64,000 nt of DNA, taken from assembly GCA_965250285.1 (NCBI GenBank), contig OZ252299.1, positions 5,472,001 to 5,536,000 of the forward strand. The letters are read 5' to 3'. Within the stretch, counting starts at the first letter, position 1. Every line of letters begins with the position of its first letter. Origin of the DNA: Myxococcota bacterium (GTDB taxonomy: Bacteria; Myxococcota_A; UBA9160; UBA4427). A program made the translations under genes and the position numbers. The notes beneath the pieces are model-generated. The model was given only the letters and a program-made list of their open reading frames with translations. It did not search any database and had not been told where the DNA came from. This document shows positions 1 through 18,072 of the stretch, one piece after another.

Positions 1-126
1 ACAAGCCGTTGCAGCGGACTTGCTACGGCTGAGGCGTTCTCGGTTCTTGGTAGAATCTCGGGCGTCCGAGGCGTTCAGCCGCTGCGAGCAAGGCCGCCGC
101 AAGCCGCTGAACGCCGACCGTTAGGC
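1..126 (+). repeat. attC site (5' end cut by window edge)
   Basis: L''/L' arms; R' GTTAGGC 120-126. Confidence 0.93.
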
Positions 127-146
127 AGCCGGAACGCCAAGCCAAG

Positions 147-647
147 ATGAAACCCCTCGCCCGCCTTGGCTTCATCCTCCTCGGTGTGTACGGGACCCTG
201 GCGTCGCTGCGAGGTGTCTCCTACTTCATCCGCACGGCGGCGGTCACCCCTCCGGCCGACTCAGGTCAGACGCTCTCTGCTCTCATCATCACCGCGAGCT
301 TGTTCGATCTCGCGCCGCCGATTCTTCTCATCTGGTTCAGCAAGCGCCTCGCAGACTTCGCGTTTCCTTTCGATCAAGAGGCAAGCCTCGATGTTGGCGC
401 CTCATCTTTGGTTTCCGCTGGCGTCTCTGTTCTCGGGGTCTACGTCGCGGCGATCGGTGTCTCGGGCTTGGTTGGTGCTGCGGTCGCTGCGGGTACTTCA
501 GTGCGCTTCCTCGAGAACCCTGCCTTTCGCGAGGGGCTGTTCTCTGGCCTCGGCGAGTCCGTAGCGTTGGTGCTCATCGGCCTGGGCTTGTTCGTCTACG
601 GTCCTCGGCTGGTCTCGGGCCGAGAGGGCAGAGCGCCGGCTGCCTAA
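147..647 (+). CDS. Multi-pass membrane protein cassette (homologue at 34685)
   Basis: Hydrophobic ORF filling the cassette; TAA inside R'' GCCTAAC. Confidence 0.85.
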   Translation: MKPLARLGFILLGVYGTLASLRGVSYFIRTAAVTPPADSGQTLSALIITASLFDLAPPILLIWFSKRLADFAFPFDQEASLDVGASSLVSAGVSVLGVYVAAIGVSGLVGAAVAAGTSVRFLENPAFREGLFSGLGESVALVLIGLGLFVYGPRLVSGREGRAPAA

Positions 648-772
648 CAAGCCGTTGCAGCGGACTTGCTTACGCTGAGGCGATTTTGGTTCTTGCTAGA
701 ATCTCGGGCGTCCGAGGCGTTCAGTCACTGCGAGCAAGGCCGCCGCAAGCCGCTGAACGCCGACCGTTAGCC
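642..772 (+). repeat. attC site, class A (CTTGC/GCAAG inner stem)
   Basis: GCCTAAC...GTTAGCC. Confidence 0.95.
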
Positions 773-782
773 AGCACACGAC

Positions 783-1331
783 ATGCGTTGCCAGATCTTC
801 GTCTCTGTCCTGCTCCTGCTCGCAGCTTCAGGCTCGCGCGCTGAGGAGAACCAACCTGCTTCGAAGGACGAGTTCGGTTCGGTCGTAGTCGTCAGCGAAC
901 GAATCGAAGCCGCGATCGCGGCGGGTGAGCTTCACCGGCAGACGAAGAACTTCGGTTGGGCCAATCCTGGCTGCAAGCTCCAGGGCTATCCGATTCTCGA
1001 GAGATCGCTCGTCCTCGACACCGAGGGGCAGATTCGGCTCTATGATCGCTCGCAGATCGTCTCGCATGGTGCGATTGAGCGTATCCGAAGCTTCTTTGAC
1101 GAGCGCGGTCGCCTGCGGATCGTCGAGCGGAAGCTCGGCAACACGATCGACCTGGTTAGAGTAAGCGAGTCCGGCAAGATTTTGCTCTCCCGGGTATCCC
1201 ATGACCGCGGCGAAACCTGGCATCAGTACTCCGCTGACTTCGACGACTGGTACATGAATCCGCGCACACCGAGCGAAGTCGAGGCTGAGTTCGCTGAATC
1301 AGAGCCGACGTGTGAGCAAGGTGCAGGCTAA
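783..1331 (+). CDS. Secreted hypothetical protein cassette
   Basis: Signal-peptide-like N-terminus; stop in R''. Confidence 0.85.
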   Translation: MRCQIFVSVLLLLAASGSRAEENQPASKDEFGSVVVVSERIEAAIAAGELHRQTKNFGWANPGCKLQGYPILERSLVLDTEGQIRLYDRSQIVSHGAIERIRSFFDERGRLRIVERKLGNTIDLVRVSESGKILLSRVSHDRGETWHQYSADFDDWYMNPRTPSEVEAEFAESEPTCEQGAG

Positions 1332-1456
1332 CAAGCCGTTGCAGCGGACTTGCTAACGCTGAGGCGATCTCGGGTCGTGGTAGAATCTCGGGTGTCCGAG
1401 GTGTTCAGTTGCTGCGAGCAAGGCCGCCGCAAGCCGCTGAACGCCGACCGTTAGGT
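1326..1456 (+). repeat. attC site, class A
   Basis: GGCTAAC...GTTAGGT. Confidence 0.95.
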
Positions 1457-1464
1457 GGCGAAGC

Positions 1465-1890
1465 GTGAAGCTGCTGCTCGCCATACTTGTTCCGGTCGTG
1501 CTCGGTTCTTCATTGGCGCTTAGCTGCGTTCCGGACCCGGTGCCTGTGTTGGTGTTCAACAACTCAGGCTCGCAGCTCTTACTCTTCGTCTACGACCGTG
1601 GCTACCGGCTTAGCCCGGGTGACTCTCAGCAGATTGATTTGTACGGCGATTTCAGCACCATATCTGTCTACCTTCCCCGCGGTCGATTCGAATACCTGGT
1701 CTTCTTCGATGAGCTCACGGTCGACTTTCAGAGGCTGATCGGCGGCGAGTACCGCATCCAGATCGAACCAGACCTCCGTGCATTCATCCTGGAGAAGCGC
1801 ACTCGTCCCCCTGTTGACACTGAGAAGATGGTTCAGCCTCCTGGGTTTCCTCTGGTTCCTAAGCTCGCAGAGGCTTGGTCTGCCACCTAA
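1465..1890 (+). CDS. Putative lipoprotein cassette
   Basis: Lipobox-like LALSC; stop in R''. Confidence 0.8.
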   Translation: MKLLLAILVPVVLGSSLALSCVPDPVPVLVFNNSGSQLLLFVYDRGYRLSPGDSQQIDLYGDFSTISVYLPRGRFEYLVFFDELTVDFQRLIGGEYRIQIEPDLRAFILEKRTRPPVDTEKMVQPPGFPLVPKLAEAWSAT

Positions 1891-2015
1891 CAAGCCGTTG
1901 CAGCGGACTTGCTGACGCTGAGGCGATATCGGGTCGTGGTACCATGTCGGTTGTCAATGGCGTCTCGGCAGGCCGTGCCAGGTCGGCGCAAGCCGCTGAA
2001 CGCCGACCGTTAGGC
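1885..2015 (+). repeat. attC site, class A variant loop
   Basis: ACCTAAC...GTTAGGC. Confidence 0.95.
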
Positions 2016-2290
2016 CGCGTGGCACAAGGCTCTCTAGTTGTTGGGTGCCGATTCCTGCCCACCGCCTTCTCGGATCGAGCAGCTCGATGCGAGCTCGCTA
2101 GCTAGTTGACCCGCTCGCTTCGCCCTTAGGTCGTTCCCGACAGATCGCATGCGACACATCGCCAGTGTGGCCACAACCGGCTCTCTGGGGCGAGCTACGC
2201 CTTCGGCCTTGCTCATCCCACTCGACTGCCGAACTCCAGCTTGGCAGGGGGTAGGGCGGCAGAGGGTCTGCTCTTCGCACGCGGTCTAAC
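2010..2290 (+). ncRNA. ORF-less cassette copy 1 (candidate structured RNA)
   Basis: ~280-bp body repeated five times; non-triplet indels between copies; nested self-complementarity. Confidence 0.55.
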
Positions 2291-2414
2291 AAGCCGTTGC
2301 AGCGGACTTGCTACCGCTGAGGCGCTTTCGGTTCTTGGTAGAATCTCGGTCGTCCCAGGCGCTCAGTCGCTGCGAGCAAGGCCGCCGCAAGCCGCTGAAC
2401 GCCGACCGTTAGGC
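2284..2414 (+). repeat. attC site, class A
   Basis: GTCTAAC...GTTAGGC. Confidence 0.95.
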
Positions 2415-2420
2415 AGCGGG

Positions 2421-3032
2421 ATGAGTGTCCACCCCGACCAAGTCAAGCCGAATCGCAAGAGTGCACTCACCGGTGGGGCTGCGCTTTTCGTCTTCCTCGG
2501 CTTTATCGTGTTCCTCGCGGTCTTCGCCGGCGATACGTCGCTTCTCTGGAAGCTCGGCGCCGTCGGGTTGCTATCAGCTGGGATCCTGGCTTCATTCCTA
2601 TGGTCGGTGCTGGGGCGAGGTGATTCTCCGACTCCACGGGGCCGTGAGCTTCGGATCGAACGGGGCCGCGTAGCTCAGGTCGAAGGCACCAAGGTCGTCG
2701 CCAGTATCGATGCAACGAAGCCGTTCGCGTACTCGATTCTTGATCGGCACATCGCGACAGACTCTCAGTTCCGCCTGTACCAAGGCCGCGTGGAACTGAC
2801 CTTCTTCAACTCCGACCCTGGCGGCGATGCAGTTGTTCGCGACGTCATCCAGATTAGCTGGCCGCCTCCGAGTCGCGGTGCCAGCAGAAGCGTGGGTCCC
2901 TCATGGGTCGATGGGCTGTCTGCTCAGGCCGATGCTCCGCCCGGCCCGAAGCAAGCACGTTGGCTTGAAGCCCTTACTCTACTCGTGGTCGCCGGTGCAT
3001 TCGCGATCGCATTCGTGGTTCTCTGGCGCTAG
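2421..3032 (+). CDS. Membrane protein cassette (homologue at 52212)
   Basis: ATG just after R'; shares TF.NSDPGG and RGASRSVGPS motifs with 52212 ORF. Confidence 0.85.
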   Translation: MSVHPDQVKPNRKSALTGGAALFVFLGFIVFLAVFAGDTSLLWKLGAVGLLSAGILASFLWSVLGRGDSPTPRGRELRIERGRVAQVEGTKVVASIDATKPFAYSILDRHIATDSQFRLYQGRVELTFFNSDPGGDAVVRDVIQISWPPPSRGASRSVGPSWVDGLSAQADAPPGPKQARWLEALTLLVVAGAFAIAFVVLWR

Positions 3033-3048
3033 GGGGGAACGCGCCGCA

Positions 3049-3179
3049 GCCTAACAAGCCGTTGCAGCGGACTTGCTGACGCTGAGGCGGTATCGAGTCA
3101 TGGTAGAATGCCGGGCGTCCGAGGCGTTCGGTCGCTGCGAGCAAGGTCGCCGCAAGCCGCTGAACGCCGACCGTTAGGC
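3049..3179 (+). repeat. attC site, class A
   Basis: GCCTAAC...GTTAGGC. Confidence 0.95.
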
Positions 3180-3186
3180 GGCGCTC

Positions 3187-3603
3187 GTGAGGCTGCTCGT
3201 ACTAGCGACGCTGACAGCATTCCTCGCCTTTCCCCTCGGCGCGTGGGCGCGTTGTCCGCGCGTGTCGGGCCCCCTCGCAGAGTCCGACCTTCGGTCGGTC
3301 GATCTCATCGTCTTCGGTCGCGTCGTGCACGTCGAGCAGGTGCCGAGTGCGCCTCATGAGCGGTTCGCCGACATCCTGGTGCAAGCGCGCTGGCAGGGCG
3401 AGTCACTCGAACGGGTCAGAGTTTGGCCTCCCGACAGCGTTCACGGCCCACGCTTCGTCGCGGGCAGCGAGTTTCTCGTCTTCGCAAACCGGGTCGGCGA
3501 CCGCTACGAAGCCAGCATGTGCCTTCCTTCATGTACCGGGTCCAACTGCCTATACCAGCTAAAACTCCTAGGCGACCCAGTCGAGCGATTCGATACCGGC
3601 TAG
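3187..3603 (+). CDS. Secreted TIMP/NTR-like domain protein cassette
   Basis: Signal peptide, early Cys, DLIVFGRV, WQG, F..G.EFLVFA, terminal Cys cluster. Confidence 0.65.
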   Translation: MRLLVLATLTAFLAFPLGAWARCPRVSGPLAESDLRSVDLIVFGRVVHVEQVPSAPHERFADILVQARWQGESLERVRVWPPDSVHGPRFVAGSEFLVFANRVGDRYEASMCLPSCTGSNCLYQLKLLGDPVERFDTG

Positions 3604-3612
3604 TCAGGCGCC

Positions 3613-3744
3613 GCCTAACAAGCCGTTGCAGCGGACTTGCTTACGTTTGAGCCGATTTGGGTCGTGGTACTATGCCGAATGTCGATGGCGTCTCGGCAGG
3701 CAGTGCCAAATTGGCGCACGCCGCTGAACGCCGATCCGTTAGGC
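3613..3744 (+). repeat. attC site, class A variant loop
   Basis: GCCTAAC...GTTAGGC. Confidence 0.93.
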
Positions 3745-4018
3745 CGCGTGGCACAAGGCCCTCTAGTTCTTGGGTGCCAATTCCTGCCCACCGCCTTGTC
3801 GAGTCGAGCAGCCCGTTGCGAGCTCGGGCGCTAGCTGACCTGCTTGCTTCGCCCTTAGGTCATTCCCGACAGATCGCATGCGACGCATCGCCAAAGTGGC
3901 CACAACCGGCTCTCTGGGGCGATCTTCGCCTTCGGCTTGCTGGTCCAACTCGACTGCCGAACTCCAGCTTGGCAGGGGGTAGGGCGGTAGCGGGCCGGCT
4001 CTTCGCACGCGGTCTAAC
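3739..4018 (+). ncRNA. ORF-less cassette copy 2
   Basis: Homologous to 2010-2290. Confidence 0.55.
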
Positions 4019-4142
4019 AAGCCGTTGCAGCGGACTTGCTACCGCTGGGGTGCTTTCGGTTCTTGGTAGAATCTCGGGTGTCCGAGGCGTTCAGTCGCTG
4101 CGAGCAAGGTCGCCGCAAGCCGCTGAACGCCGACCGTTAGGC
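4012..4142 (+). repeat. attC site, class A
   Basis: GTCTAAC...GTTAGGC. Confidence 0.95.
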
Positions 4143-4416
4143 CGCGTGGCACAAGGCCCTCTAGTTGTTGGGTGCCGGTTCCTGCCCACCGCCTTCTCGA
4201 GTCGGGCAGCTCGTTGCGAGCTCGGGCGCGAGCTGACCTATCTGCTTCGCCCTTAGGTCACTCCCAATAGATCGCATGTGACGCATCGCCAAAGTGGCCA
4301 CAACCGGCTCTCTGCGGCGAGCTTCGCCTTCGGCCTTCTCGTCCTACTCGAGTGCAGAACGCCAGCTTGGCAGGGGGAAGGGCGCCAGAGGGTCCGCTCT
4401 TCGCACGCGGTCTAAC
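4137..4416 (+). ncRNA. ORF-less cassette copy 3 (tandem with copy 2, diverged)
   Basis: Homologous to 2010-2290. Confidence 0.55.
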
Positions 4417-4540
4417 AAGCCGTTGCAGCGGACTTGCTACCGCTGAGGCGGTCCCGGTTGTTGTTAGGATCTCGGGCGTCCGAGGCGTTCAGTCACTGCG
4501 AGCAAGGCCGCCGCAAGCCGCTGAACGCCGACCGTTAGGC
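4410..4540 (+). repeat. attC site, class A
   Basis: GTCTAAC...GTTAGGC. Confidence 0.95.
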
Positions 4541-4545
4541 AGCGA

Positions 4546-4806
4546 GTGCCGAGCTGGCTCCGAAAAATGTACTGGACCGGTATCCAGATACTCGTAGCCG
4601 GGCTCGCGTCTTCCGCCGGCGCGGTCTACTTCTTGTTGCGACCCGTCGGCGAGTATCACGAGCCTTCCGGCTACGGCGAACGACTGGTCGTCGGGCTAGC
4701 CCTGTTCGGCGTTGTCGCGACCATCGGAGGCGCTCGCATTGTCCACCAGGCCAGGCGTTCCGCACCGAATGCCGAGAGTCATCCGAACGAGAATCCACCT
4801 TCGTAG
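4546..4806 (+). CDS. Small two-TM membrane protein cassette
   Basis: ORF fills cassette; two hydrophobic segments. Confidence 0.75.
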   Translation: MPSWLRKMYWTGIQILVAGLASSAGAVYFLLRPVGEYHEPSGYGERLVVGLALFGVVATIGGARIVHQARRSAPNAESHPNENPPS

Positions 4807-4840
4807 GGCTAACGAGCGACGCCATCAGGCCCCGCTCGCT

Positions 4841-4971
4841 GCCTAACAAGCCGTTGCAGCGGACTTGCTAACGCTTAGGCGATATCGGGTCGTGGTAGAA
4901 TCTCGGGCGTCCAAGGCGTTCAGTCACTGCGAGCAAGGTCGCCGCAAGCCGCTGAACGCCGACCGTTAGAT
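4841..4971 (+). repeat. attC site, class A
   Basis: GCCTAAC...GTTAGAT. Confidence 0.95.
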
Positions 4972-4985
4972 GGCGCGAGCGGGTC

Positions 4986-5399
4986 TTGATGCGTTCTCGG
5001 TTGAGCCTTCTTCTGCTGCTCTCGATCGTGCTCCTTCTGTCGATCGCCTGCGACCCCATATACCGTCTACGCGTCACCGGGCCGGTGCCAACGGCGCCGG
5101 TGCCAGACTGCGTGCTCGAATCGCTCGACGCCGACGACCGCGTCACCGAGCCGTCGATAGTGACTCCTGGCGCAATAGCGGCGACGCTAGTCGTACCACC
5201 GAGCATGTCAGTTCCGGAGTCGCATCCCGAACTATCGGTGCACTTCTCCCATACTGAAACGTGGGGTGGTGATCTCGAGATTCAGATGCTGTGGGTGGGC
5301 CCCAAGGCCTCGCGAGAGTACGAGCAGTACGCAACGAATGTCATTCGCGAGCTCCACTTTGTTCTCACCAAGAGGTGCGTTCCGCCCTCCGCCACATAG
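4986..5399 (+). CDS. Putative lipoprotein cassette
   Basis: Hydrophobic leader ending LSIAC. Confidence 0.8.
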   Translation: MMRSRLSLLLLLSIVLLLSIACDPIYRLRVTGPVPTAPVPDCVLESLDADDRVTEPSIVTPGAIAATLVVPPSMSVPESHPELSVHFSHTETWGGDLEIQMLWVGPKASREYEQYATNVIRELHFVLTKRCVPPSAT

Positions 5400-5415
5400 C
5401 AGTTGGGCGCGCGCC

Positions 5416-5544
5416 ATCTAACAAGCCGTTGCAGCGGACGTGGCAACGCCTATGCCGTATCGGTCGTGGTAGGCTTACGGTTTTCGAGGCTTCGGCGTTC
5501 GCGGTGCAAGGTTGCGCCACGCCGCTGAACGCCGACCGTTAGAT
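5416..5544 (+). repeat. attC site, class B (CGTGGC/GCCACG inner stem)
   Basis: ATCTAAC...GTTAGAT. Confidence 0.95.
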
Positions 5545-5558
5545 GGCGGAGACGCGAG

Positions 5559-5906
5559 ATAGGACGTTACAAGTTCAAGCTTGGCCAGAAGCCACGACGA
5601 AAGCGCCGGTTAGATTCCGGGCGTACGCGCATTCGTCGAGGTGGCGATCCGACGGCAGCAGGAAGAGAGCGGGGCGATCCGATTTCTCCCGAAGAGCGTT
5701 GGGTTCCGAGCTTCGACGACGTAATTGCAGCATTGGTCGTCATTTCGCTGATCACATTCTTCATTGCCGCGTTCTGTTCTCTTGGCCACTGTTCATGTGC
5801 GGGGCTGAGTGCTTACTCGAACTCTCGAGTGAGTCTCGTCACTCCGTTGCCCCTGCAGATTCGCCCGCCATCTAACAAGGCGTTGCAGCGGACTTGCTTA
5901 GGCTGA
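5559..5906 (+). CDS. Basic N-terminal single-TM protein, probable ATA start (homologue of 35326 ORF)
   Basis: Hand translation IGRYKFKLGQKPRRKRRLDSGRTR...WVPSFDDVIAALVVISL matches [24 protein letters not shown]...[17 protein letters not shown]; stop inside attC. Confidence 0.65.
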   Translation: MGRYKFKLGQKPRRKRRLDSGRTRIRRGGDPTAAGRERGDPISPEERWVPSFDDVIAALVVISLITFFIAAFCSLGHCSCAGLSAYSNSRVSLVTPLPLQIRPPSNKALQRTCLG

Positions 5907-6000
5907 GGCGATATCGGGTCGTGGTAGACTGCCGGGTGTCCGAGGCATTCAGCCGCTGCGAGCTAGGTCGCCGCAAGCCGCTGAACGCCGACCGTTAGGC
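5870..6000 (+). repeat. attC site, class A
   Basis: ATCTAAC...GTTAGGC. Confidence 0.95.
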
Positions 6001-6040
6001 GGCGACGCATTCGCCCGATCGTCGACGTGGGCGGGCTGCA

Positions 6041-6214
6041 TTGATCGATCTACTCGTCGGTCTCCTAGATCTCAGCCATCTCTGGCGCCTCTTTCTGCCA
6101 CCGGTTCTTCTGGGCGCAGCATGCTTCTTCGCCTGGGGCGGGTCGGCAGCGCAGTACGGTGCTGTAGCCGGTCTTCCTATCGGCCTGGTTTGGGCGCTTC
6201 GACATCGGAGCTAG
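6041..6214 (+). CDS. Small (57 aa) membrane protein cassette
   Basis: TTG-start ORF MIDLLVGLLDLSHLWRLFLPPVLLGAACFF..., below ORF-track size cutoff. Confidence 0.55.
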   Translation: MIDLLVGLLDLSHLWRLFLPPVLLGAACFFAWGGSAAQYGAVAGLPIGLVWALRHRS

Positions 6215-6267
6215 CGCTCATTTCGATCTTCCAAAGGCCGTCTGTTGTCGCGTACTCGCCGGTCGCC

Positions 6268-6398
6268 GCCTAACAAGCCGTTGCAGCGGACTTGCTAACG
6301 CTTGAGCCGATTCGGGTCGTGGTACCATGGCAGCTGTCGATGGCGTCTCGGCAGGCTGTGCCAGATCGGCGCAAGCCGCTGAACGCCGACCGTTAGGC
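6268..6398 (+). repeat. attC site, class A variant loop
   Basis: GCCTAAC...GTTAGGC. Confidence 0.95.
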
Positions 6399-6446
6399 GG
6401 CGGAACTGTGTGCTGAAGCGTGCCGCGGGAATGACGGAGCCCTTCG

Positions 6447-6740
6447 ATGAAGCGAACAGCCTACTCGCCCGAACTGCAGTCGGAACTCGCACATGGTAAG
6501 TATACGAAGTGGGCAGCTGATCTGACTGAAGCCGAGCTTTACAACCTGCTATGGCTCGTAGGCGAGTTCGGCGTTCGCACGCCAGAAGACAGCGAGGGGC
6601 CGGTGATCGGCGCGAGTCACCGACGCGCCGGCGCTCGCTGGGGCATAGTTCAGTATGTCCGCTGCCGGCGAGCGGTGTCGTTCCAGCGCGCCATACGTCG
6701 TTACAATCCAGACGGCTCGTTGAGAAAGCCGAGTGCCTAG
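6447..6740 (+). CDS. Hypothetical protein cassette (duplicated at 13226)
   Basis: ORF fills cassette. Confidence 0.65.
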   Translation: MKRTAYSPELQSELAHGKYTKWAADLTEAELYNLLWLVGEFGVRTPEDSEGPVIGASHRRAGARWGIVQYVRCRRAVSFQRAIRRYNPDGSLRKPSA

Positions 6741-6750
6741 CTCGTCCGCC

Positions 6751-6881
6751 GCCTAACAAGCCGTTGCAGCGGACTTGCTAACGCTGAGGCGATATCGGGT
6801 CGTGGTAGACTGGCCGGTGTCCGAGGCGTTCAGCCGCAGCGCGCAAGGCCGCCGCAAGCCGCTGAACGCCGACCGTTAGGC
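6751..6881 (+). repeat. attC site, class A
   Basis: GCCTAAC...GTTAGGC. Confidence 0.95.
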
Positions 6882-6889
6882 GGCACTCG

Positions 6890-7255
6890 ATGCTTGGCCT
6901 GGCTCGCGCACGGGGCTTGGGTGCTCGCTTGGAGAACGTGGCTCTCTTTGCAGGGCTCACTACTGTGTCCCTGCTCTTCGTGGCCTTGCGCAAGACTTAT
7001 CTCTATCCCGACGATGTCACCATTCCATACCTAAGCGGTCCCAGGCTCTGGTTCTCCGCGAGTCTAATTGCAGGTACCGTCGGCGCCTCTTTGGTGCTTC
7101 GTGTTCGGCGCTCGCAGCGTCTCCGTTTGCGCGGCGTCGCTGCTCTTTCGCTGTCTGCGAGTCCGCTCGTTCTCGTGCTCGCGCTGCTTGTTGTGGTCGC
7201 CGTGGCCTATGTGGCCGGGGTCCAGGTTTTCATCTGGGCGCAAGGTGCCGCCTAA
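6890..7255 (+). CDS. Membrane protein cassette
   Basis: Three hydrophobic segments; stop in R''. Confidence 0.8.
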   Translation: MLGLARARGLGARLENVALFAGLTTVSLLFVALRKTYLYPDDVTIPYLSGPRLWFSASLIAGTVGASLVLRVRRSQRLRLRGVAALSLSASPLVLVLALLVVVAVAYVAGVQVFIWAQGAA

Positions 7256-7380
7256 CAAGCCGTTGCAGCGGACTTGCTCCCGCTGAGGCGATATCGGGTC
7301 GTGGTAGACTGGCCGGCGTCCGAGGCGTTCAGCCACTGCGAGCAAGGCCGCCGCAAGCCGCTGAACGCCGACCGTTAGGC
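7250..7380 (+). repeat. attC site, class A
   Basis: GCCTAAC...GTTAGGC. Confidence 0.95.
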
Positions 7381-7388
7381 GGCCGCTC

Positions 7389-7772
7389 GTGCACGTTCGT
7401 GTGATCTTCATCGGTCTGCTGCTGCTCGGCTCAGCTGCTGGCGACGTCGCTCTTGCAGAACCGGCTTGCCAGATGCCGCCTGATTCTGCCTCGGTCCGAT
7501 CTCGGGTCCTGGGGGCGACGCGTCTGCTTCCAACTTACGTCGATGGAAAGATGGTCGGGCTCACCGTCGACCAGATCGATCCCGACAGTCTCCTGGCACC
7601 TTCCGATCTGCGCGTTGGTGACATGATCGTTGCAGTCAACGGACTCGATATCACCAACCCAAAGTCCGGTAAAGAACTCCTCTGTCGCCTGGGTCGATCA
7701 GAACCGGTCACTATTCATGTTGAGCGAGATTCCGGCGAGCGCGTCCCCATCACCATCGCCGCGGCCGCCTAA
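7389..7772 (+). CDS. Secreted PDZ-domain protein (GspC C-terminal PDZ-like)
   Basis: DGKMVGLTV..IDPDS....LRVGDMIVAVNG...IHVER PDZ pattern; signal peptide. Confidence 0.8.
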   Translation: MHVRVIFIGLLLLGSAAGDVALAEPACQMPPDSASVRSRVLGATRLLPTYVDGKMVGLTVDQIDPDSLLAPSDLRVGDMIVAVNGLDITNPKSGKELLCRLGRSEPVTIHVERDSGERVPITIAAAA

Positions 7773-7897: not shown

Positions 7898-7905
7898 GGC
7901 CGCGG

Positions 7906-8911: not shown

Positions 8912-9042
8912 GCCTAACAAGCCGTTGCAGCGGACTTGCTAACGCTGAGGCGATATCAGGTCGTGGTAGAATGGCGGGCGTCTGAGGCGCTCAGTCGCTG
9001 CGAGCAAGGCCGCCGCAAGCCGCTGAACGCCGACCGTTAGAT
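8912..9042 (+). repeat. attC site, class A
   Basis: GCCTAAC...GTTAGAT. Confidence 0.95.
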
Positions 9043-9056
9043 GGCGGAGACGCGAG

Positions 9057-9404
9057 ATAGGACGTTACAAGTTCAAGCTTGGCCAGAAGCCACGACGAAA
9101 GCGCCGGTTAGATTCCGGGCGTACGCGCATTCGTCGAGGTGGCGATCCGACGGCAGCAGGAAGAGAGCGGGGCGATCCGATTTCTCCCGAAGAGCGTTGG
9201 GTTCCGAGCTTCGACGACGTAATTGCAGCATTGGTCGTCATTTCGCTGATCACATTCTTCATTGCCGCGTTCTGTTCTCTTGGCCACTGTTCATGTGCGG
9301 GGCTGAGTGCTTACTCGAACTCTCGAGTGAGTCTCGTCACTCCGTTGCCCCTGCAGATTCGCCCGCCATCTAACAAGGCGTTGCAGCGGACTTGCTTAGG
9401 CTGA
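9057..9404 (+). CDS. Duplicate of the 5559 cassette ORF
   Basis: 9037-9492 reads identical to 5539-5994. Confidence 0.65.
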   Translation: MGRYKFKLGQKPRRKRRLDSGRTRIRRGGDPTAAGRERGDPISPEERWVPSFDDVIAALVVISLITFFIAAFCSLGHCSCAGLSAYSNSRVSLVTPLPLQIRPPSNKALQRTCLG

Positions 9405-10112: not shown

Positions 10113-10121
10113 GGCGGGGGA

Positions 10122-10583: not shown

Positions 10584-10706
10584 CAAGCCGTTGCAGCGGA
10601 CGTGGCAACGCTTATGCCATGCCGGTCGTGGTAGGCTTGCGGAGTCCCAGGCGTCCCGAGCCGCGGTGCAAGGTTGCGCCACGCCGCTGAACGCCGACCG
10701 TTAGGC
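10578..10706 (+). repeat. attC site, class B
   Basis: ACCTAAC...GTTAGGC. Confidence 0.95.
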
Positions 10707-10723
10707 AGCATGGTCGTGTCTCC

Positions 10724-11077
10724 GTGGACGTGATCTCCGTCGAAGAATGGCAGCTCACCTCATTCTTCGAGGTGCTGCCGAGCTACCCCGATCCCGACTC
10801 ACCGTGGCCGTACACGGAAGTGGTCTATGAGGTCACCCGTGGTGACCTCTCGATGACATGCGCCATCTGCCCCGCGTACCGAGATGTCCGTCTCATTGTC
10901 CGTCACGGTGAAGCCGTCTCATACGAGTTGAACGCCACCCAGGTCCAGGATCTTTCCTACACGAAGGACGCTTCGGGCGAATCGTTGCGAATTGCGACCA
11001 GCGATTCTGAGTACATCGACCTGCGCCTCAACCCAGGTATCTCGATCAAGCACACAGTCGACCACCAGTTCGACTAG
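10724..11077 (+). CDS. Hypothetical protein cassette
   Basis: ORF fills cassette. Confidence 0.8.
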   Translation: MDVISVEEWQLTSFFEVLPSYPDPDSPWPYTEVVYEVTRGDLSMTCAICPAYRDVRLIVRHGEAVSYELNATQVQDLSYTKDASGESLRIATSDSEYIDLRLNPGISIKHTVDHQFD

Positions 11078-11087
11078 TGCGCATGCT

Positions 11088-11218
11088 GCCTAACAAGCCG
11101 TTGCAGCGGACTTGCTAACGCTTGGGCGATATCGGGTCGTGGTAGACTGCCGGTTGTCCTAGGCATTCAGTCGCTGCGAGCCAGGTCGCCGCAAGCCGCT
11201 GAACGCCGACCGTTAGGC
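11088..11218 (+). repeat. attC site, class A
   Basis: GCCTAAC...GTTAGGC. Confidence 0.95.
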
Positions 11219-11228
11219 AGCATCTCCC

Positions 11229-11690
11229 GTGCCGGAAGTTCGCGTCGTTATCCCGGACGAAACCTACGGAATCGTCAAGTTTCGCCAAGACGATCTCCCT
11301 GGTGTTGCCGTCATCAACAAGTCGTTGGTTGGATTCGCGTCGCGGGAGGTCTTTCGGTGGCATCTCTCGATCATGGTCCACTTCGAAGAGATCATCGACA
11401 ACGGTATGCCTGCTCAGGCTGACGTTGGTCTCGTAGATCGATTCGGCGATCAGCTAGATCAGGAACTCAAAGTCGACTCTGAGCGTCCGAATGCCCTCTT
11501 CCTGGGGCGTGTGACCTGGAACGAGACTCGTGAGCTCATCTATCGGGTATACGACCCGGAAGTCACGAACGACCTTCTCCAGCGAATCGTGAGCGATCGA
11601 ACGCATCCTCGAGAGTTCGACTATCGCATTGACGATGATCCTGACTGGGGCCTTGCAGAGTGGCATCTGAATGCGTGCGCTCCCGCTTAA
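11229..11690 (+). CDS. DUF695-family protein
   Basis: NGMP, LFLGRVTWNETRELIYRV, DDDPDW motifs. Confidence 0.75.
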   Translation: MPEVRVVIPDETYGIVKFRQDDLPGVAVINKSLVGFASREVFRWHLSIMVHFEEIIDNGMPAQADVGLVDRFGDQLDQELKVDSERPNALFLGRVTWNETRELIYRVYDPEVTNDLLQRIVSDRTHPREFDYRIDDDPDWGLAEWHLNACAPA

Positions 11691-11702
11691 TGCCCCGATG
11701 CT

Positions 11703-11833
11703 GCCTAACAAGCCGTTGCAGCGGACTTGCTTACGCTGAGGCGATCTAGGGCCGTGGTAGACTGACCGGCGTCCGAGGCGTTCAGCCACTGCGAGCAAGG
11801 CCGCCGCAAGCCGCTGAACGCCGACCGTTAGGC
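11703..11833 (+). repeat. attC site, class A
   Basis: GCCTAAC...GTTAGGC. Confidence 0.95.
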
Positions 11834-12107
11834 CGCGTGGCACAAGGCTCTCTAGTTGTTGGGTGCTGAATCCTGCCCACCGCCTTCTCGAGTCGGGCAG
11901 CTCGTTGCGAGCTCTCCAGCTAGCTGACCCGTTCGCTTCGCCCTTAGGTCATCCCCGACAGATCGAGCGCGACGCATCGCCAAAGTGGCCACAACCGGCT
12001 CTCTGGGTCGAACTTCGCCTTCGGCCTGCTCATCCCACTCCACTGCCGAACTCCAGCTTGGCAGGGGGTAGGGCGCCAGAGGGTCTGCTCTTCGCACGCG
12101 GTCTAAC
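11828..12107 (+). ncRNA. ORF-less cassette copy 4
   Basis: Homologous to 2010-2290. Confidence 0.55.
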
Positions 12108-12235
12108 AAGCCGTTGCAGCGGACATCGTCCAGCTGAGGCGATATCGGCTCTGGTAGTTTCTTGGCAACGAACCAAGTGCGTTCAGCGAGACCGGTCAGC
12201 AGCTGGCCGATGCCGCTGAACGCCGACCGTTAGAC
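12101..12235 (+). repeat. attC site, class C (CATCGTCCAGCTG/CAGCTGGCCGATG stem)
   Basis: GTCTAAC...GTTAGAC. Confidence 0.95.
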
Positions 12236-12251
12236 AGCCGGAGCGGCGCCT

Positions 12252-12632
12252 GTGACGCTCGATCAAGCGCTGATCGCGAGCCTCGGAATCGGAATGCTTG
12301 CGTGCATTGCCCTCGTTCTCAGGGGCTATATCGAGGTTCGCATTCGATTCAGTGGCTTTCTCAGGTCCGAGCGCCCGGAACTATGGTCGCAGCTCGCCCC
12401 TTCTCACAACGACTCCGAAGAGTTCGTCACCCTGGGCATTTTGAGCTTCGATCCCACGCCAGCAATTTCGCGTTTTCGACGCGGGGGCTTTCGCGAGCTC
12501 GCCGACACCGAGCTTTCTGCGCGCTGTGCGCATGCGAACCGCGCGGAGCGCATCGGACTTCTCTCGTGGTTCGCCCTGCTCGCGTGGACGTTGGTCGTGT
12601 TCGGAGTCATCATCGCCTTGCGTGCCGCGTGA
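12252..12632 (+). CDS. Two-TM membrane protein cassette
   Basis: ORF fills cassette. Confidence 0.8.
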   Translation: MTLDQALIASLGIGMLACIALVLRGYIEVRIRFSGFLRSERPELWSQLAPSHNDSEEFVTLGILSFDPTPAISRFRRGGFRELADTELSARCAHANRAERIGLLSWFALLAWTLVVFGVIIALRAA

Positions 12633-12639
12633 ACCGGCT

Positions 12640-12771
12640 GTCTAACAAGGCGTTGCAGCGGACACCGAACAGCTGGATCGAATCGACCGTGTTAGCCTCT
12701 TGGCATCAACCCAGGTGCTTCATCGGCCCGGTCAGCGCCGTCCGGTGCCGCTGAACGCCGATCCGTTAGGC
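12640..12771 (+). repeat. attC site, class D (CACCG/CGGTG stem)
   Basis: GTCTAAC...GTTAGGC. Confidence 0.93.
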
Positions 12772-12801
12772 GGCGTTCGAGTTGACTCGAGACGTACTCG
12801 A

Positions 12802-13053
12802 ATGACAAGGTCGCCGTGGTTGACAGGCTTGGCCCTTGGCATCGTGATCGGGGCCATCGCGGCCGGCTTCGCTGTGTTCGCGGCTCTCGATCACAACCCG
12901 CAGGGCGAGTTCCAGCGCGGTGGCTCGGTCCAGGTCGGTCCTCTTCTCTTGATAGGTGGTAGCTGGTTCGGACTCGTGGGCGCCGTTGTGTGGCTTGTGT
13001 TGGGCTCGGCTCTGGCGATTCTCCGACGAAGGCGCGAACACCACGCCGCCTAA
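12802..13053 (+). CDS. Small membrane protein cassette
   Basis: ATG after R'; DHNPQGEF loop between two TMs; stop in R''. Confidence 0.75.
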   Translation: MTRSPWLTGLALGIVIGAIAAGFAVFAALDHNPQGEFQRGGSVQVGPLLLIGGSWFGLVGAVVWLVLGSALAILRRRREHHAA

Positions 13054-13177
13054 CAAGCCGTTGCAGCGGACGTGGCAACGCCTTCGCTCTATCGCTGGTG
13101 GTAGAATTTCCACATCCCAGGCTTCGGCCGTCGTGGTGCAAGGTTGTGCCACGCCGCTGAACGCCGAACCGTTAGGC
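13048..13177 (+). repeat. attC site, class B
   Basis: GCCTAAC...GTTAGGC. Confidence 0.95.
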
Positions 13178-13225
13178 GGCGGAACTGTGTGCTGAAGCGT
13201 GCCGCGGGAATGACGGAGCCCTTCG

Positions 13226-13519
13226 ATGAAGCGAACAGCCTACTCGCCCGAACTGCAGTCGGAACTCGCACATGGTAAGTATACGAAGTGGGCAGCTGAT
13301 CTGACTGAAGCCGAGCTTTACAACCTGCTATGGCTCGTAGGCGAGTTCGGCGTTCGCACGCCAGAAGACAGCGAGGGGCCGGTGATCGGCGCGAGTCACC
13401 GACGCGCCGGCGCTCGCTGGGGCATAGTTCAGTATGTCCGCTGCCGGCGAGCGGTGTCGTTCCAGCGCGCCATACGTCGTTACAATCCAGACGGCTCGTT
13501 GAGAAAGCCGAGTGCCTAG
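13226..13519 (+). CDS. Duplicate of the 6447 cassette ORF
   Basis: Identical translation. Confidence 0.65.
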   Translation: MKRTAYSPELQSELAHGKYTKWAADLTEAELYNLLWLVGEFGVRTPEDSEGPVIGASHRRAGARWGIVQYVRCRRAVSFQRAIRRYNPDGSLRKPSA

Positions 13520-13529
13520 CTCGTCCGCC

Positions 13530-13660
13530 GCCTAACAAGCCGTTGCAGCGGACTTGCTAACGCTGAGGCGATATCGGGTCGTGGTAGACTGGCCGGTGTC
13601 CGAGGCGTTCAGCCGCAGCGCGCAAGGCCGCCGCAAGCCGCTGAACGCCGACCGTTAGGC
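13530..13660 (+). repeat. attC site, class A
   Basis: GCCTAAC...GTTAGGC. Confidence 0.95.
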
Positions 13661-13676
13661 CGCAACTCGAGCTTGA

Positions 13677-14111
13677 ATGATGCGATGGTCGGTAGATACG
13701 GCGGACGCGCACCGTCTTCTTTGGGCGGTCCTTGATCACTTTGAAGGCAATGCGCTTGTCTCGTTCGAGGGCAGGCTTTCCGACCTCGGGCTCTCGCCCA
13801 TTTCTGGTGCCCGATCAGACGAGTCTTCGGTACTTCGCAGGCACACACAGCTCCCAGTTCAAGACTTCGTAGTTCTACCCGTGAACCGTGAGACGATTCG
13901 CGACGTGAAGCGCTGTCTCTCAGACGTCGAGCTCATCGACGAGTCCGGGCCGGTCATTCACGTCCAGGTCCAATCGGGCGACTCCCTAGTTCTCGGGGCG
14001 TACGACAATTTCGATCCCGAGTGCGTCGTGGTCTGGCCCCCTACGCCAGAGGCGTTGCTTCAAGGGCTCCTCGAGGCCGGCGCCCTCCGCTCGTACAACG
14101 TTGCGGCCTAA
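13677..14111 (+). CDS. Hypothetical protein cassette
   Basis: ORF fills cassette; stop in R''. Confidence 0.8.
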   Translation: MMRWSVDTADAHRLLWAVLDHFEGNALVSFEGRLSDLGLSPISGARSDESSVLRRHTQLPVQDFVVLPVNRETIRDVKRCLSDVELIDESGPVIHVQVQSGDSLVLGAYDNFDPECVVVWPPTPEALLQGLLEAGALRSYNVAA

Positions 14112-14236
14112 CAAGCCGTTGCAGCGGACTTGCTACCGCTGAGGCGATATCGGTCCGTGGTAGCATGGCGGGCATCCGAGGCGTTCCGTGACTGCGAGCA
14201 AGGCCGCCGCAAGCCGCTGAACGCCGACCGTTAGGC
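14106..14236 (+). repeat. attC site, class A
   Basis: GCCTAAC...GTTAGGC. Confidence 0.95.
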
Positions 14237-14512
14237 CGCGTGGCACAAGGCCCTCTAGTTGTTGGGTGCCGATTCCTGCCCACCGCCTTCTCGAGTCGGG
14301 CAGCTCGTTGCGAGCTCTCCAGCTAGCTGACCCGTTCGCTTCGCCCTTAGGTCATCCGCGACAGATCGAGCGCGACGCATCGCCAAAGTGCCCACAACCG
14401 GCTCTCTGGGGCGACCTTCGCCTTCGGCCTGCTCTCATCCCACTCGACTGCCGAACTCCAGCTTGGCAGGGGGTAGGGCGCCAGAGGGTCTGTTCTTCGC
14501 ACGCGGTCTAAC
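14231..14512 (+). ncRNA. ORF-less cassette copy 5
   Basis: Homologous to 2010-2290; 2-nt insertion relative to copy 4. Confidence 0.55.
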
Positions 14513-14640
14513 AAGCCGTTGCAGCGGACATCGTCCAGCTGAGGCGACATCGGCTTTGGTAGCTTGTTGGCATCGAACTCTGTGCGTTCAGCGAGAGCGG
14601 TCAGCAGCTGGCCGATGCCGCTGAACGCCGACCGTTAGGC
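14506..14640 (+). repeat. attC site, class C
   Basis: GTCTAAC...GTTAGGC. Confidence 0.95.
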
Positions 14641-14648
14641 GGCGTTGC

Positions 14649-15080
14649 GTGGATGCTGTCGCGTACGTTCGTCGCGTGATCTGGCTGCCCACGGTTGTCC
14701 CGTTCGTACTAGTTGCCGTAATCGCTGTCGTCGGCTCAAGCGATGGGACAGTTCGATACTCCATTCGTGAGTATCTCGACCATTGCCGCTTCTACGGTGC
14801 GTTTCTGTATCCGGTATACGTTGCAATCGCCCTGTACAACTTTCGCGAGTCCGGCGTCAAGGCCCACTGGGCGCTTCTGTTTGCGACGCCGATCGCATTT
14901 CCGATCTTCTACGCCTCGGTCAACGCAACTCTGTGGTACTACGAAACTGATTGGGGCACGGGCCTTTATTCGTTCTTCCTTTACCTCGGGGGTGCGCTTG
15001 GCGTTCCCATTGGGCTCGCTTTCGCATTGATCGCGTGGGGTCTTTGGCGAGTTCGGTTGCTGCGGCGGAACGCCGCCTAA
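14649..15080 (+). CDS. Multi-pass membrane protein cassette
   Basis: Hydrophobic ORF; stop in R''. Confidence 0.8.
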   Translation: MDAVAYVRRVIWLPTVVPFVLVAVIAVVGSSDGTVRYSIREYLDHCRFYGAFLYPVYVAIALYNFRESGVKAHWALLFATPIAFPIFYASVNATLWYYETDWGTGLYSFFLYLGGALGVPIGLAFALIAWGLWRVRLLRRNAA

Positions 15081-15206
15081 CAAGCCGTTGCAGCGGACTT
15101 GCTAACGCCGAGGCGATCTTGGTTCTTGCTAGAATCTCGGGCGTCCGAGGCGTTCAGTCGTTGCGAGCAAGGTCGCCGCAAGCCGCTGAACGCCGATCCG
15201 TTAGGC
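15075..15206 (+). repeat. attC site, class A
   Basis: GCCTAAC...GTTAGGC. Confidence 0.95.
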
Positions 15207-15214
15207 GGCGAAGC

Positions 15215-15589
15215 GTGACTCGGAGCCAATCCGCAGATGAAGCAACGCTGCGGCGGGTTCGCGACAACATCATCGAGTATCTCGAGATCACCTCGTCGAT
15301 CGAACGGCAGAGGGCCGAGCACCATGTCCCGGGTGAGACGCTCAACTCGTGGGACGACTCCTTCAACGAATCCTGGTTCAAGGCCTACCTTCCTCCGGTG
15401 TTCTCGAACGAGGAGCGCGACGCGATGCTGTCGTTTCACGCGTCGCTGGAGCGGATCTGCTCCCTTCTGCCCGAGCCTCTCCCGACCTTTGACGAGCTGG
15501 CTGCAAATCGTGAATGGCAGCAACTCTGCGAGGCTGCCGCCGCCGCGGCCGCAGTCTTCCGCCACCGGGGGCGCTCCTCGTCTGCTTAG
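15215..15589 (+). CDS. Hypothetical protein cassette
   Basis: GTG start after R', in frame with track ORF 14951-15589. Confidence 0.8.
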   Translation: MTRSQSADEATLRRVRDNIIEYLEITSSIERQRAEHHVPGETLNSWDDSFNESWFKAYLPPVFSNEERDAMLSFHASLERICSLLPEPLPTFDELAANREWQQLCEAAAAAAAVFRHRGRSSSA

Positions 15590-15599
15590 CCGGTTCGCC

Positions 15600-15730
15600 G
15601 CCTAACAAGCCGTTGCAGCGGACTTGCTAACTCTGAGGCGATATCGGGTCGTGGTAGACTGGCCGGCGTCCGAGGCGTTCAGTCGCTGCGAGCAAGGCCG
15701 CCGCAAGCCGCTGAACGCCGACCGTTAGGC
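15600..15730 (+). repeat. attC site, class A
   Basis: GCCTAAC...GTTAGGC. Confidence 0.95.
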
Positions 15731-15746
15731 GGCCTGGCCGACCCAC

Positions 15747-16259
15747 ATGCCGGACCCGACAGACACGCTGATGATCCTCGTAGAGGCCGCTGCCGCCGTA
15801 GCGGGTTTCTCGGGCGTAGTGGTCGTCTTCGGTCGCCGTTCGGCTGGCGCCTGGTCCGATCTCGAGCGCACTCGCTTGTTCAATCTTCTCTTCACGAGCT
15901 TCACAGTTCTCTTCTCATCGCTCGGAGCGCTCGTCCTACTTCATGCAGAGCTGAGCGATTCTACGACCTGGCGAATCGGGAGCATTAGCTGGTCCGTTTT
16001 GTCGACTTGGCAGATCGCATCGGTCGCACGAGCCTACTCCTCCCTTTCGCGCAGTGATCCCAATCGCCCACACGTAGCCATTCCGGTAGTTCTTCTCGGG
16101 TTGACGGCTGGTCTTGTGGTTCTCAATCTGTACAACGCCTTTGTAGGCACGCCTGAATTCTGGCGTTTTCTTGCAGCGCTAGTCTGGCTTCTGGCGCTCG
16201 CCTGGTACTCGTTCGCACAACTTCTTCTGGTAGCCAGCCGAGGCGAGCAGGCCGCCTAA
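15747..16259 (+). CDS. Membrane protein, 'E...A.AGF.G' family (5 paralogues in window)
   Basis: EAAAAVAGFSGVVVVFGRR; stop in R''. Confidence 0.85.
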   Translation: MPDPTDTLMILVEAAAAVAGFSGVVVVFGRRSAGAWSDLERTRLFNLLFTSFTVLFSSLGALVLLHAELSDSTTWRIGSISWSVLSTWQIASVARAYSSLSRSDPNRPHVAIPVVLLGLTAGLVVLNLYNAFVGTPEFWRFLAALVWLLALAWYSFAQLLLVASRGEQAA

Positions 16260-16382
16260 CAAGCCGTTGCAGCGGACGTGGCAACGCTGTGCCGATATCG
16301 CGCGTGGTAGAATGTCAGCATCACAGGCTTCGGCCGGCGCGGTGCAAGGTTGTGCCACGCCGCTGAACGTCGACCGTTAGGC
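16254..16382 (+). repeat. attC site, class B
   Basis: GCCTAAC...GTTAGGC. Confidence 0.95.
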
Positions 16383-16390
16383 GGCGCGAG

Positions 16391-16879
16391 TTGCGAGCCT
16401 CTTCGATCCATACCGCCGTGGTTCTCTCAGCCCTCATAGGCTGCGCAACAACCGATCTCGCTGCGATCCCCTCGGAAGAGTGTCACTACTTACTGCCGGC
16501 ATTCTTTGGCGAACAGGACGAGTTTCGCGCGATCCGTCAGGGCGACGACTTTCATGCCGTTCAGGTACCACCCGTCGGGCCGGACGGTGAGTCGCCCGAC
16601 CGCCGCCGCTTCGCCGAGCTAGTGACAGACGTCGATTCTCACTGGTACCGCATCGACGACACCGCTTACGCTTGGTTCGGCGAAGGGCCAGCTCTGCGCT
16701 TTCCCTATTCTGGCTATCTAGCTCGGGTGCGGGAGATCTGTTCCGATTGCGAGGTCGGCGACTCGATCATGCATCCGGCCCCCGGCCTGGAGGCGGAGTG
16801 CATCGCAGTCGACGCTGAGCCGATATCGCTGCCGGACGGGCTTCGATTCCAAGATATCGACCCTGCACACTTCAAGTAG
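16391..16879 (+). CDS. Putative lipoprotein cassette
   Basis: Lipobox LIGC. Confidence 0.8.
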   Translation: MRASSIHTAVVLSALIGCATTDLAAIPSEECHYLLPAFFGEQDEFRAIRQGDDFHAVQVPPVGPDGESPDRRRFAELVTDVDSHWYRIDDTAYAWFGEGPALRFPYSGYLARVREICSDCEVGDSIMHPAPGLEAECIAVDAEPISLPDGLRFQDIDPAHFK

Positions 16880-16904
16880 TCCGCACACGCTCACTTCGCG
16901 CGCC

Positions 16905-17034
16905 GCCTAACAAGCCGTTGCAGCGGACTTGCTAACGCTTGAGCCGTATCGGGGCGTGGTAGAATTGCGAAGTCCGAGGCGTTCAGTCGCTGCGAGCAAG
17001 GCCGCCGCAAGCCGCTGAACGCCGACCGTTAGGC
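16905..17034 (+). repeat. attC site, class A
   Basis: GCCTAAC...GTTAGGC. Confidence 0.95.
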
Positions 17035-17045
17035 CGCGAGAAGCT

Positions 17046-17297
17046 GTGCAGATGCACATCGTCGCATTCGCTGCGTTCGCTGCGGCTTCGGCGGTCTTCC
17101 TCGTCAAGATCGTTCCGCGGCTACTTGTCGATGATCCTCATCAGCCGTGGGCGCTGAGCCTCATGGTTGTGCCCGCCTATCGCCGATACTTCGCGATCTG
17201 TCGAGAGAATCGCGAGTCGCCAATGTGGGCACTCGTTAGCCTTACCCTCTTCGCTGTGTCTGCGGCGGCCGCCGTGGTTGCGGTTCGCTTCGCTTAG
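17046..17297 (+). CDS. Small membrane protein cassette
   Basis: ORF fills cassette. Confidence 0.75.
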   Translation: MQMHIVAFAAFAAASAVFLVKIVPRLLVDDPHQPWALSLMVVPAYRRYFAICRENRESPMWALVSLTLFAVSAAAAVVAVRFA

Positions 17298-17306
17298 CCG
17301 CTCGCG

Positions 17307-17437
17307 GCCTAACAAGCCGTTGCAGCGGACTTGCTACCGCTGAGGCGATATCGGGCCGTGGTAGAGTGACGGGTGTCTGGGGCGTTCAGCTGTTGCGAGC
17401 AAGGCCGCCGCAAGCCGCTGAACGCCGAACGTTAGGC
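17307..17437 (+). repeat. attC site, class A
   Basis: GCCTAAC...GTTAGGC. Confidence 0.95.
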
Positions 17438-17444
17438 GGCGGGA

Positions 17445-17948
17445 TTGCAGGGCCAGCTTTCACTTGAGGCAATTGCGGAGATCTCAATCGCCCTCGCCGG
17501 GTTCTCCGGTCTGATTGCCATGGTCAGAAGTGGCCCCGTCCACGACTGGCACCCGCGGGTTCGACTCGCGTTCTGGATTAGCCTCAACTGGAGTATTGCA
17601 GCGGTGGCCCTGAGCCTGCTCCCGTCGTTGCTAATCACTTTCGGCCCATCAAGCTGGGTACTTCTAAACGGCGTAGCGAGCATCGTTCTTGTTGCTGGAC
17701 TGGCGTTGATGCTCTGCGCGCATCTTCATCTGAATCGCCAAGGATCACCAACGCAGAACCCGTGGCATTGGGTGGCGAACATCTCCGTCATTGCCGTCGG
17801 TGCGGTCGGAACCCTGTCGGCTCTGCTTGGCGCTGGCGACGGCGCGAGCTTCGAGTCGTTCAGATTCGGGGTCATCTCTTGCCTACTGGCTGCGTTGCCG
17901 GGCTTCTTGGCGAGCTTCCGAGTTCGAAGTCCCTCGCCCGCCGCCTAA
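17445..17948 (+). CDS. Membrane protein, 'E...A.AGF.G' family
   Basis: EISIALAGFSGLIAMV; stop in R''. Confidence 0.85.
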   Translation: MQGQLSLEAIAEISIALAGFSGLIAMVRSGPVHDWHPRVRLAFWISLNWSIAAVALSLLPSLLITFGPSSWVLLNGVASIVLVAGLALMLCAHLHLNRQGSPTQNPWHWVANISVIAVGAVGTLSALLGAGDGASFESFRFGVISCLLAALPGFLASFRVRSPSPAA

Positions 17949-18072
17949 CAAGCCGTTGCAGCGGACGTGGCAACGCTGTGCCGATATCGACCGTGGTAGA
18001 CTGGCGGAGTCCCAGGCGTTCTGAGCCGCGGTGCAAGGTCGTGCCACGCCGCTGAACGCCGAACCGTTGGAC
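17943..18072 (+). repeat. attC site, class B (last intact site)
   Basis: GCCTAAC...GTTGGAC. Confidence 0.9.

Follow-up and report, generated by a model that had tools for sequence, protein, structure and literature searches.

Can the genes of a long integron array be expressed far from the cassette promoter Pc? In the review literature, cassettes are described as promoterless and only the Pc-proximal ones as expressed (PMC8946536). We analysed a stretch of 64,000 nucleotides (the window; contig OZ252299.1, positions 5,472,001 to 5,536,000 of the forward strand) from a Myxococcota bacterium of the class UBA9160 and order UBA4427, whose genome is a single contig of 6.25 Mb with 68.6% GC. The left end of the window holds most of the cassettes of a chromosomal integron, each bounded by attC recombination sites, and the central loop of these sites carries the motif TGnTAnnnT. 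We consider it very probable, from sequence comparison, that this motif is a selected sigma70 extended -10 promoter that would drive the next cassette and is kept as cassettes become fixed in the chromosome.

A sequence-only reading of the window had drawn attention to the motif, placing it at 48–56 and 1378–1386 (TGGTAGAAT), 1937–1945 (TGGTACCAT) and 5922–5930 (TGGTAGACT). These coordinates are correct, and every other variant it listed occurs in the window. Positions 1–18072 contain exactly 35 matches on the plus strand, one per intact attC and none outside attCs, and two on the minus strand; the genome background of 0.32–0.45 per 10 kb per strand gives an expectation of less than one per strand over this interval. 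Genome-wide, all 53 distinct intact attCs have the motif in their central loop, with the same top-strand orientation. The same reading held that TG, TA and the final T stay fixed across four attC classes. Loop sequences form four to six classes, depending on the threshold, and on a tree of attCs built with the motif excluded we counted no change at any of the five columns, compared with a mean of 5.5 changes at the other 66 loop columns and 3–18 at the columns neighbouring the motif. Three of those 66 columns, all G/C, also showed no change; none of the 22 other A/T columns did. The constrained positions are thus -15, -14, -12, -11 and -7, with -13, -10, -9 and -8 free, as in the extended -10 consensus from work on E. 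coli and Bacillus.

Base pairing in the folded bottom strand, which the sequence-only reading had named as a possible cause of this conservation, was rejected. The motif bases are predicted to be mostly unpaired, with mean pairing probabilities (0.13 for T-12, 0.29 for A-11, 0.28 for T-7 and 0.33–0.34 for TG) that rank among the lowest in the loop. The sites themselves have the cores RYYYAAC (R'') and GTTRRRY (R') and, in most minimum free energy folds, a bottom-strand hairpin with extrahelical bases 6 bp apart; some of these folds give an alternative hairpin of the 3' half instead. On the bottom strand, C is the first unpaired base; the canonical first extrahelical base on that strand is G. 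In the main attC class, the 3' half (for example, window 716–760) forms a strong local hairpin that competes with the recombinogenic fold in several predictions, and the predicted transcript would have this hairpin at its 5' end.

We compared the motif with the promoters of the host, using our own gene calls (3943 genes outside integron regions). Within 100 nt upstream of these genes, TGnTAnnnT occurs 238 times in sense and 45 times in antisense orientation, and control motifs with another last base or with TA swapped show no such sense bias. TAnnnT peaks 12–14 nt before start codons (121, 67 and 42 occurrences, compared with 3–10 at -17 to -30), which is the spacing of leaderless genes. At 232 such host sites, the unselected positions favour G at -14 (0.67), G at -10 (0.46) and T at -15 (0.31), with no -35 signal, and these base preferences have the same shape as the attC logo. 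The host RpoD has intact regions 2.3–3.0; a His and a Glu of sigma region 3.0 read the TG of an extended -10 element.

The motif extends well beyond this genome. Attachment sites of relatives were found by a pattern on the attC ends only, which matched 58 of 193 genomes of the order; most, not all, of the listed matches were fetched, and 86 unlisted ones were partly recovered. The fetched regions yielded at least 202 distinct attCs from 49 genomes in nine families. Among these fetched matches, TGnTAnnnT stands on the top strand of 144 of 202 attCs and on the bottom strand of 4 (TAnnnT alone, 180 and 25), and 38 of the 49 genomes have at least one motif-bearing attC. When these attCs were clustered together with those of the window at 80, 70 and 60% loop identity, the motif was found in 91 of 136, 66 of 104 and 49 of 74 clusters, respectively, compared with 2–4 for shuffles and 1–4 for the bottom strand; at 70%, 66 clusters bear it on top and 2 on the bottom, with 2.8 expected. 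A ranking of 1024 gapped patterns over 126 representatives of 122–140 nt (from 353, other lengths being left out) put TGnTAnnnT first, at 79 of 126 against 3.8 expected (z 34, runner-up z 8). A metagenome scan blind to the motif added 153 new attCs from 123 of 127 loci, with the motif on top in 88 and on the bottom in 4 (4.4 expected); several longer or shorter attC families from metagenomes lack it. Outside the class, none of the 44 attCs beside integrases of other phyla had the motif on either strand (8 of 80 loci gave sites), and a phylum-wide pattern search returned chance-level matches only and did not find this attC type.

Could the pattern reflect only shared ancestry and recent homogenization of the attC repeats, the likeness to a promoter being chance or an inactive relic? 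All sites are indeed homologous, and the three unchanged G/C columns fit such a history within this genome. The neighbouring columns, however, change repeatedly on the same tree, and the four A/T loop columns with the highest information content across the 126 divergent representatives are T-7, A-11, T-12 and T-15. Decayed copies in this genome, described below, lose about half of the other invariant A/T bases. We regard this explanation as largely refuted and very improbable.

Where the full motif is missing, other boxes tend to take its place. Most of the 38 clusters without it have a shifted TAnnnT, GGCATACT or TTGACC-18-CATACT, and 94 of the 104 clusters have some -10-like box, with about 35 expected for TAnnnT alone. 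This comparison supports replacement of the lost motif by other -10-like boxes and points to a promoter. The TTGAYC-18-CATACT arrangement is limited to one minor attC class, with intact members in G016, G031 and G164. The motif could instead bind another protein, such as an integrase accessory factor or regulator, or be a single-strand structural feature that resembles a -10 box; loop composition is reported to affect strand choice (PMC5027507). But the spacing and base choice copy host promoters, replacement by boxes of the -35/-10 type and by CATACT would be hard to explain for one sequence-specific factor, and the motif persists without the cores, which leaves this explanation with very little probability. 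Two further attC families have loop motifs of their own. In one, from Gammaproteobacteria (L083, L073), the top strand of the loop tip reads CACAAT or CACACT in 10 of 15 and 2 of 5 sites, possibly a weaker -10-like box; the other, a metagenome family of 141–144 nt (L277, L278, L299, L305, L338 and L362), keeps GGAAG or GGAAC followed by a TTGTG-like sequence.

Behind the intact array, a motif-masked profile identified 18 decayed attCs at 18660–37713 and one more behind a second attC cluster; one 23-nt minus-strand match was dropped from the set. Of the recombination cores in these 19 copies, TAAC of R'' is whole in none and GTT of R' in two. The motif is whole at its aligned place in 10 copies, a number that rises to 13 when displacements of up to 4 nt are included (the latter count by inspection); 2 of the remaining copies belong to the TTGAYC class and 1 has TAnnnT only. 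The five motif positions are better kept than A/T-matched invariant columns (54/76 versus 184/342, p=0.007). Taken jointly, matched sets of five conserved columns reached 10 copies 0, 0 and 56 times in 100000 draws from three pools, two of which exclude the cores by which decay was defined. Past 18072 the window contains 26 motifs on the plus strand and 0 on the minus strand, thinning toward 63517. Those without a recognizable attC have flanks near or within background, and each is followed after 40–114 nt by a gene on the plus strand; their strand, density and spacing make an origin from attCs probable. A genome of another family (G043) has a similar trail, with 12 versus 0 motifs in the 20 kb behind its array and 0 versus 1 beyond the other side of the integrase.

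The position of the motif within the attC bears on what it might do. The predicted transcription start (+1) lies no more than 3 nt from the attC centre in 56 of 65 clusters. This is the best argument that the motif is a real polymerase site serving recombination, at which the open complex would melt the centre of a long-loop attC and aid hairpin extrusion, with expression of the next gene as a by-product. Two articles report that long loops hinder cruciform extrusion because they need melting (PMC8946536, PMC5027507). Against such a role, the motif outlasts the recombination cores, lies far off-centre in short and long attC classes and is in no class a feature of the bottom strand. In G291, which belongs to another order of the class, an ATG also stands at the predicted +1, 6–8 nt after the box in 7 of 7 attCs, which is the leaderless spacing of the host class. 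A role confined to recombination therefore seems improbable to us, although less so than the two explanations above; melting of the loop and promotion of the next gene are compatible and not mutually exclusive.

The open reading frames (ORFs) that begin at this ATG in G291 have 17–18 codons and end on the TAG of R' in five attCs. Among 121 genomes of the class, one showed the ATG form; the metagenome scan added one more site (L251). A leader ORF of this kind was rejected for the window's own attCs: in 60 of 65 clusters, +1 offers no start codon in the frame of R', and there is no frame bias. Directly after the crossover at R', all attCs have AGGCGG or AGGTGG (for example, window 1450–1467). 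Start codons cluster 13–22 nt from the crossover G, with a median pairing energy to the host anti-Shine–Dalgarno sequence of -5.3 kcal/mol (computed without a control), and as a lead only, the R' core may double as a ribosome-binding site. A transcript that starts at the attC centre lacks the 5' arm. In such RNA, R'+2 to +9 is predicted to be unpaired at 0.36, compared with 0.16 in read-through RNA (125/149), a difference that arises partly by construction. Accessibility of R' is relevant here, since hairpins formed by attC in mRNA reportedly block ribosomes, a block that short ORFs relieve (PMC8876359).

Several observations weigh against a promoter. No -35 element (TTGACA-like, 16–18 nt upstream) gives a signal in the attC logo, and scans for it returned 0 matches. 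The host peak at -12 may partly consist of in-frame stop codons, which cannot be the case for the counts at -13 and -14. A central +1 would also fit a role in melting the loop. As the attCs are homologous, the counts across them are not independent, and they show constraint rather than independent origins. The full motif is missing from 58 of the 202 attCs of relatives, and about 10 of the 104 clusters have no -10-like box at all. Three of the 19 decayed copies have lost the motif or any box, and column by column, the five positions are no better kept than all invariant columns (71/95 versus 681/969, p=0.41), the excess appearing only against A/T-matched columns and jointly. G016 has no clear motif trail (2 sense, 1 antisense). 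On balance, the promoter proposed by the sequence-only reading is supported by the match to host motifs, the strand asymmetry across nine families, retention after core decay, replacement by -10-like boxes and, in one relative, the ATG at +1.

In the mechanism that we propose, sigma70 would bind TGnTAnnnT as an extended -10 promoter without a -35 element. Initiation would occur close to the attC centre, with some 60 nt left to the crossover, and the transcript would enter the next cassette. Each cassette gene would then be driven by the attC of the preceding cassette, and excision and insertion would re-pair genes with promoters of different predicted strength; on an excised double-stranded circle, the promoter would face the cassette's own gene. 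The centre-started transcript, having no 5' arm, could not fold into the long attC hairpin in which R' and the AGGCGG just after it are buried in read-through RNA. From these features we infer that the whole array could be expressed. At the old end of the array, the recombination boxes would erode while the promoter stays, and former cassettes would be fixed as ordinary genes. We lean slightly towards the broader proposal that the attC of this class of Myxococcota is a three-in-one module, combining a recombination site, a promoter and an entry point for translation, provided either by the R' core as a ribosome site or by a leaderless leader peptide whose end falls on R'. The integron may accordingly act not as a silent store but as a fully expressed library that shuffles promoters, and also as a conveyor that makes old cassettes permanent and has left a 45-kb fossil trail.

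In the literature covered, most subscription papers and supplements being outside its scope, we came across no description of a promoter conserved in the loops of attCs. Sedentary chromosomal integrons such as the Vibrio cholerae superintegron resemble the present one in having an integrase, homogeneous long-loop attCs (49 here) with R'', L'', L' and R', and small unknown genes on one strand; the attI of such integrons has a candidate counterpart here. They differ in that here the recombination site of every cassette holds a candidate promoter and intI is co-oriented with the array. Promoters carried by particular cassettes (cmlA, qacE, ereA, qnrVC and toxin–antitoxin cassettes) and gene-less promoter cassettes are described as giving Pc-independent expression in arrays (PMC8876359; bioRxiv 10.1101/2023.11.21.568050). 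Those known promoters lie in the 5' leader or body of the cassette, whereas here every cassette has the candidate in its attC loop, from where it would serve the neighbour. Closest are two Vibrio cases: in Vibrio sp. DAT722, one sigma70-type promoter bridges an attC with a 40-fold transcript step (PMC2945992), and start sites inside the attC of the gene-less cassette F2 were read there as possibly spurious. Both are isolated cases and not a conserved lineage-wide loop element. The ORFs of 17–19 codons that end at R' in G291 and L251 resemble the short ORFs in attI1 and attC (ORF-11; Jacquier et al., as reviewed), but would be leaderless and start from the attC's own promoter, and they are absent from the window's genome.

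Membership of the array in an integron rests on an adjoining integrase. IntI matches TIGR02249 at 438.9 bits (cut-off 265), has no internal stops and ends about 650 nt before the first attC; intI and the candidate attI share the strand of the cassettes and lie 8–9 kb upstream of the window. This attI, identified by position only, is a GTTAGGC core (L001:2657) that precedes the first cassette and lacks a 5' attC arm, and a TAGATT box 43 nt ahead of this core (L001:2609–2659) is a candidate Pc. A separate cluster of 5 intact attCs and 1 decayed attC (G000:C1:109240–114100, L366) has no integrase; assuming a circular chromosome, about 0.9 Mb separate it from the main array. Short-read contigs from 4 runs of one study span the array and its repeats. 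Exact look-ups with the RpoD and IntI sequences gave no match; those relatives of RpoD that bear a taxon name are assigned to Myxococcota or Myxococcales.

Identical or near-identical cassettes recur far apart in the array (6389–6688 and 13168–13467; 5506–5805 and 9004–9303), and their presence at several positions is an indirect sign of recent integrase activity. A cassette of 281–283 bp has nine copies, at window 2009–2290, 3738–4018, 4136–4416, 11827–12107 and 14230–14512 and at four sites upstream of the window. It has no conserved reading frame, small indels among copies and no Rfam match, and the upstream attC promoter would yield a non-coding RNA from it. Our gene caller found 7 genes in the array and overlooked most of the young cassette genes. 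Pfam matches were found for 3 of 20 scanned cassette ORFs from 1–18072 (52 ORFs were scanned overall), and an Rfam scan of window 1–40000 returned none. Behind decayed attCs or relic motifs, at 18091–61609, the window has at least eight paralogues of a family of 150–175 amino acids with a hydrophobic N terminus (repeat family D15). These have no Pfam match; their Atlas neighbours are hypothetical proteins, including one cluster with DUF6082 in 32% of members.

Table 1. Intact and decayed attC sites and their loop motifs in the window
Feature	Position	Strand	Details
Distal 35 of 49 intact attC-bounded cassettes, chromosomal integron	1..18072	+	intact attC sites
35 extended -10 motifs TGnTAnnnT	48..18002	+	starts: 48, 694, 1378, 1937, 2336, 3101, 3665, 4064, 4462, 4893, 5467, 5922, 6320, 6803, 7302, 7819, 8414, 8964, 9420, 10034, 10629, 11140, 11755, 12152, 12690, 13099, 13582, 14158, 14557, 15127, 15652, 16305, 16957, 17359, 17994
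Representative intact attC	642..772	+	R'' (GCCTAAC), L'' with two unpaired bases 6 bp apart, ~80-nt loop, L', R' (GTTAG)
Decayed attC, other class	18660..18785	+	without TG motif, with TTGATC-18-CATACT
Decayed attC, cores broken	19378..19493	+	motif at 19416
Decayed attC	20293..20418	+	motif at 20342
Decayed attC	20893..20994	+	motif at 20921
Decayed attC (weak match)	21483..21573	+	motif lost
Decayed attC	22019..22142	+	motif at 22064
Decayed attC	22565..22691	+	motif at 22603
Decayed attC	23156..23280	+	motif lost
Decayed attC	23787..23900	+	motif at 23824
Decayed attC	24337..24452	+	motif at 24380
Decayed attC, second class	25500..25624	+	with TTGACC-18-GATACT
Decayed attC (weak match)	26171..26246	+	motif lost
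Decayed attCs	26796..30610	+	motif at 26796, 27590, 28153, 29987, 30535; TAnnnT without first T at ~28785
Two strongly decayed attCs	35202..37713	+	motif at 35242, 37662
Probable attC relics, motif only	31087..63525	+	31087, 32632, 33919, 38462, 41747, 42748, 44538, 46328, 53932, 56882, 59350, 63517

The standard integron model treats distance from Pc as the switch of expression and the attC loop as variable filler. If the loop motif is a promoter, its presence in nearly every attC of a lineage would amount to a second integron logic, in which the arrays would not be the largely silent stores of genes that textbooks describe. It would also explain how distal cassettes are expressed and come under selection, and would make visible how a mobile cassette can turn into a fixed gene of the chromosome.

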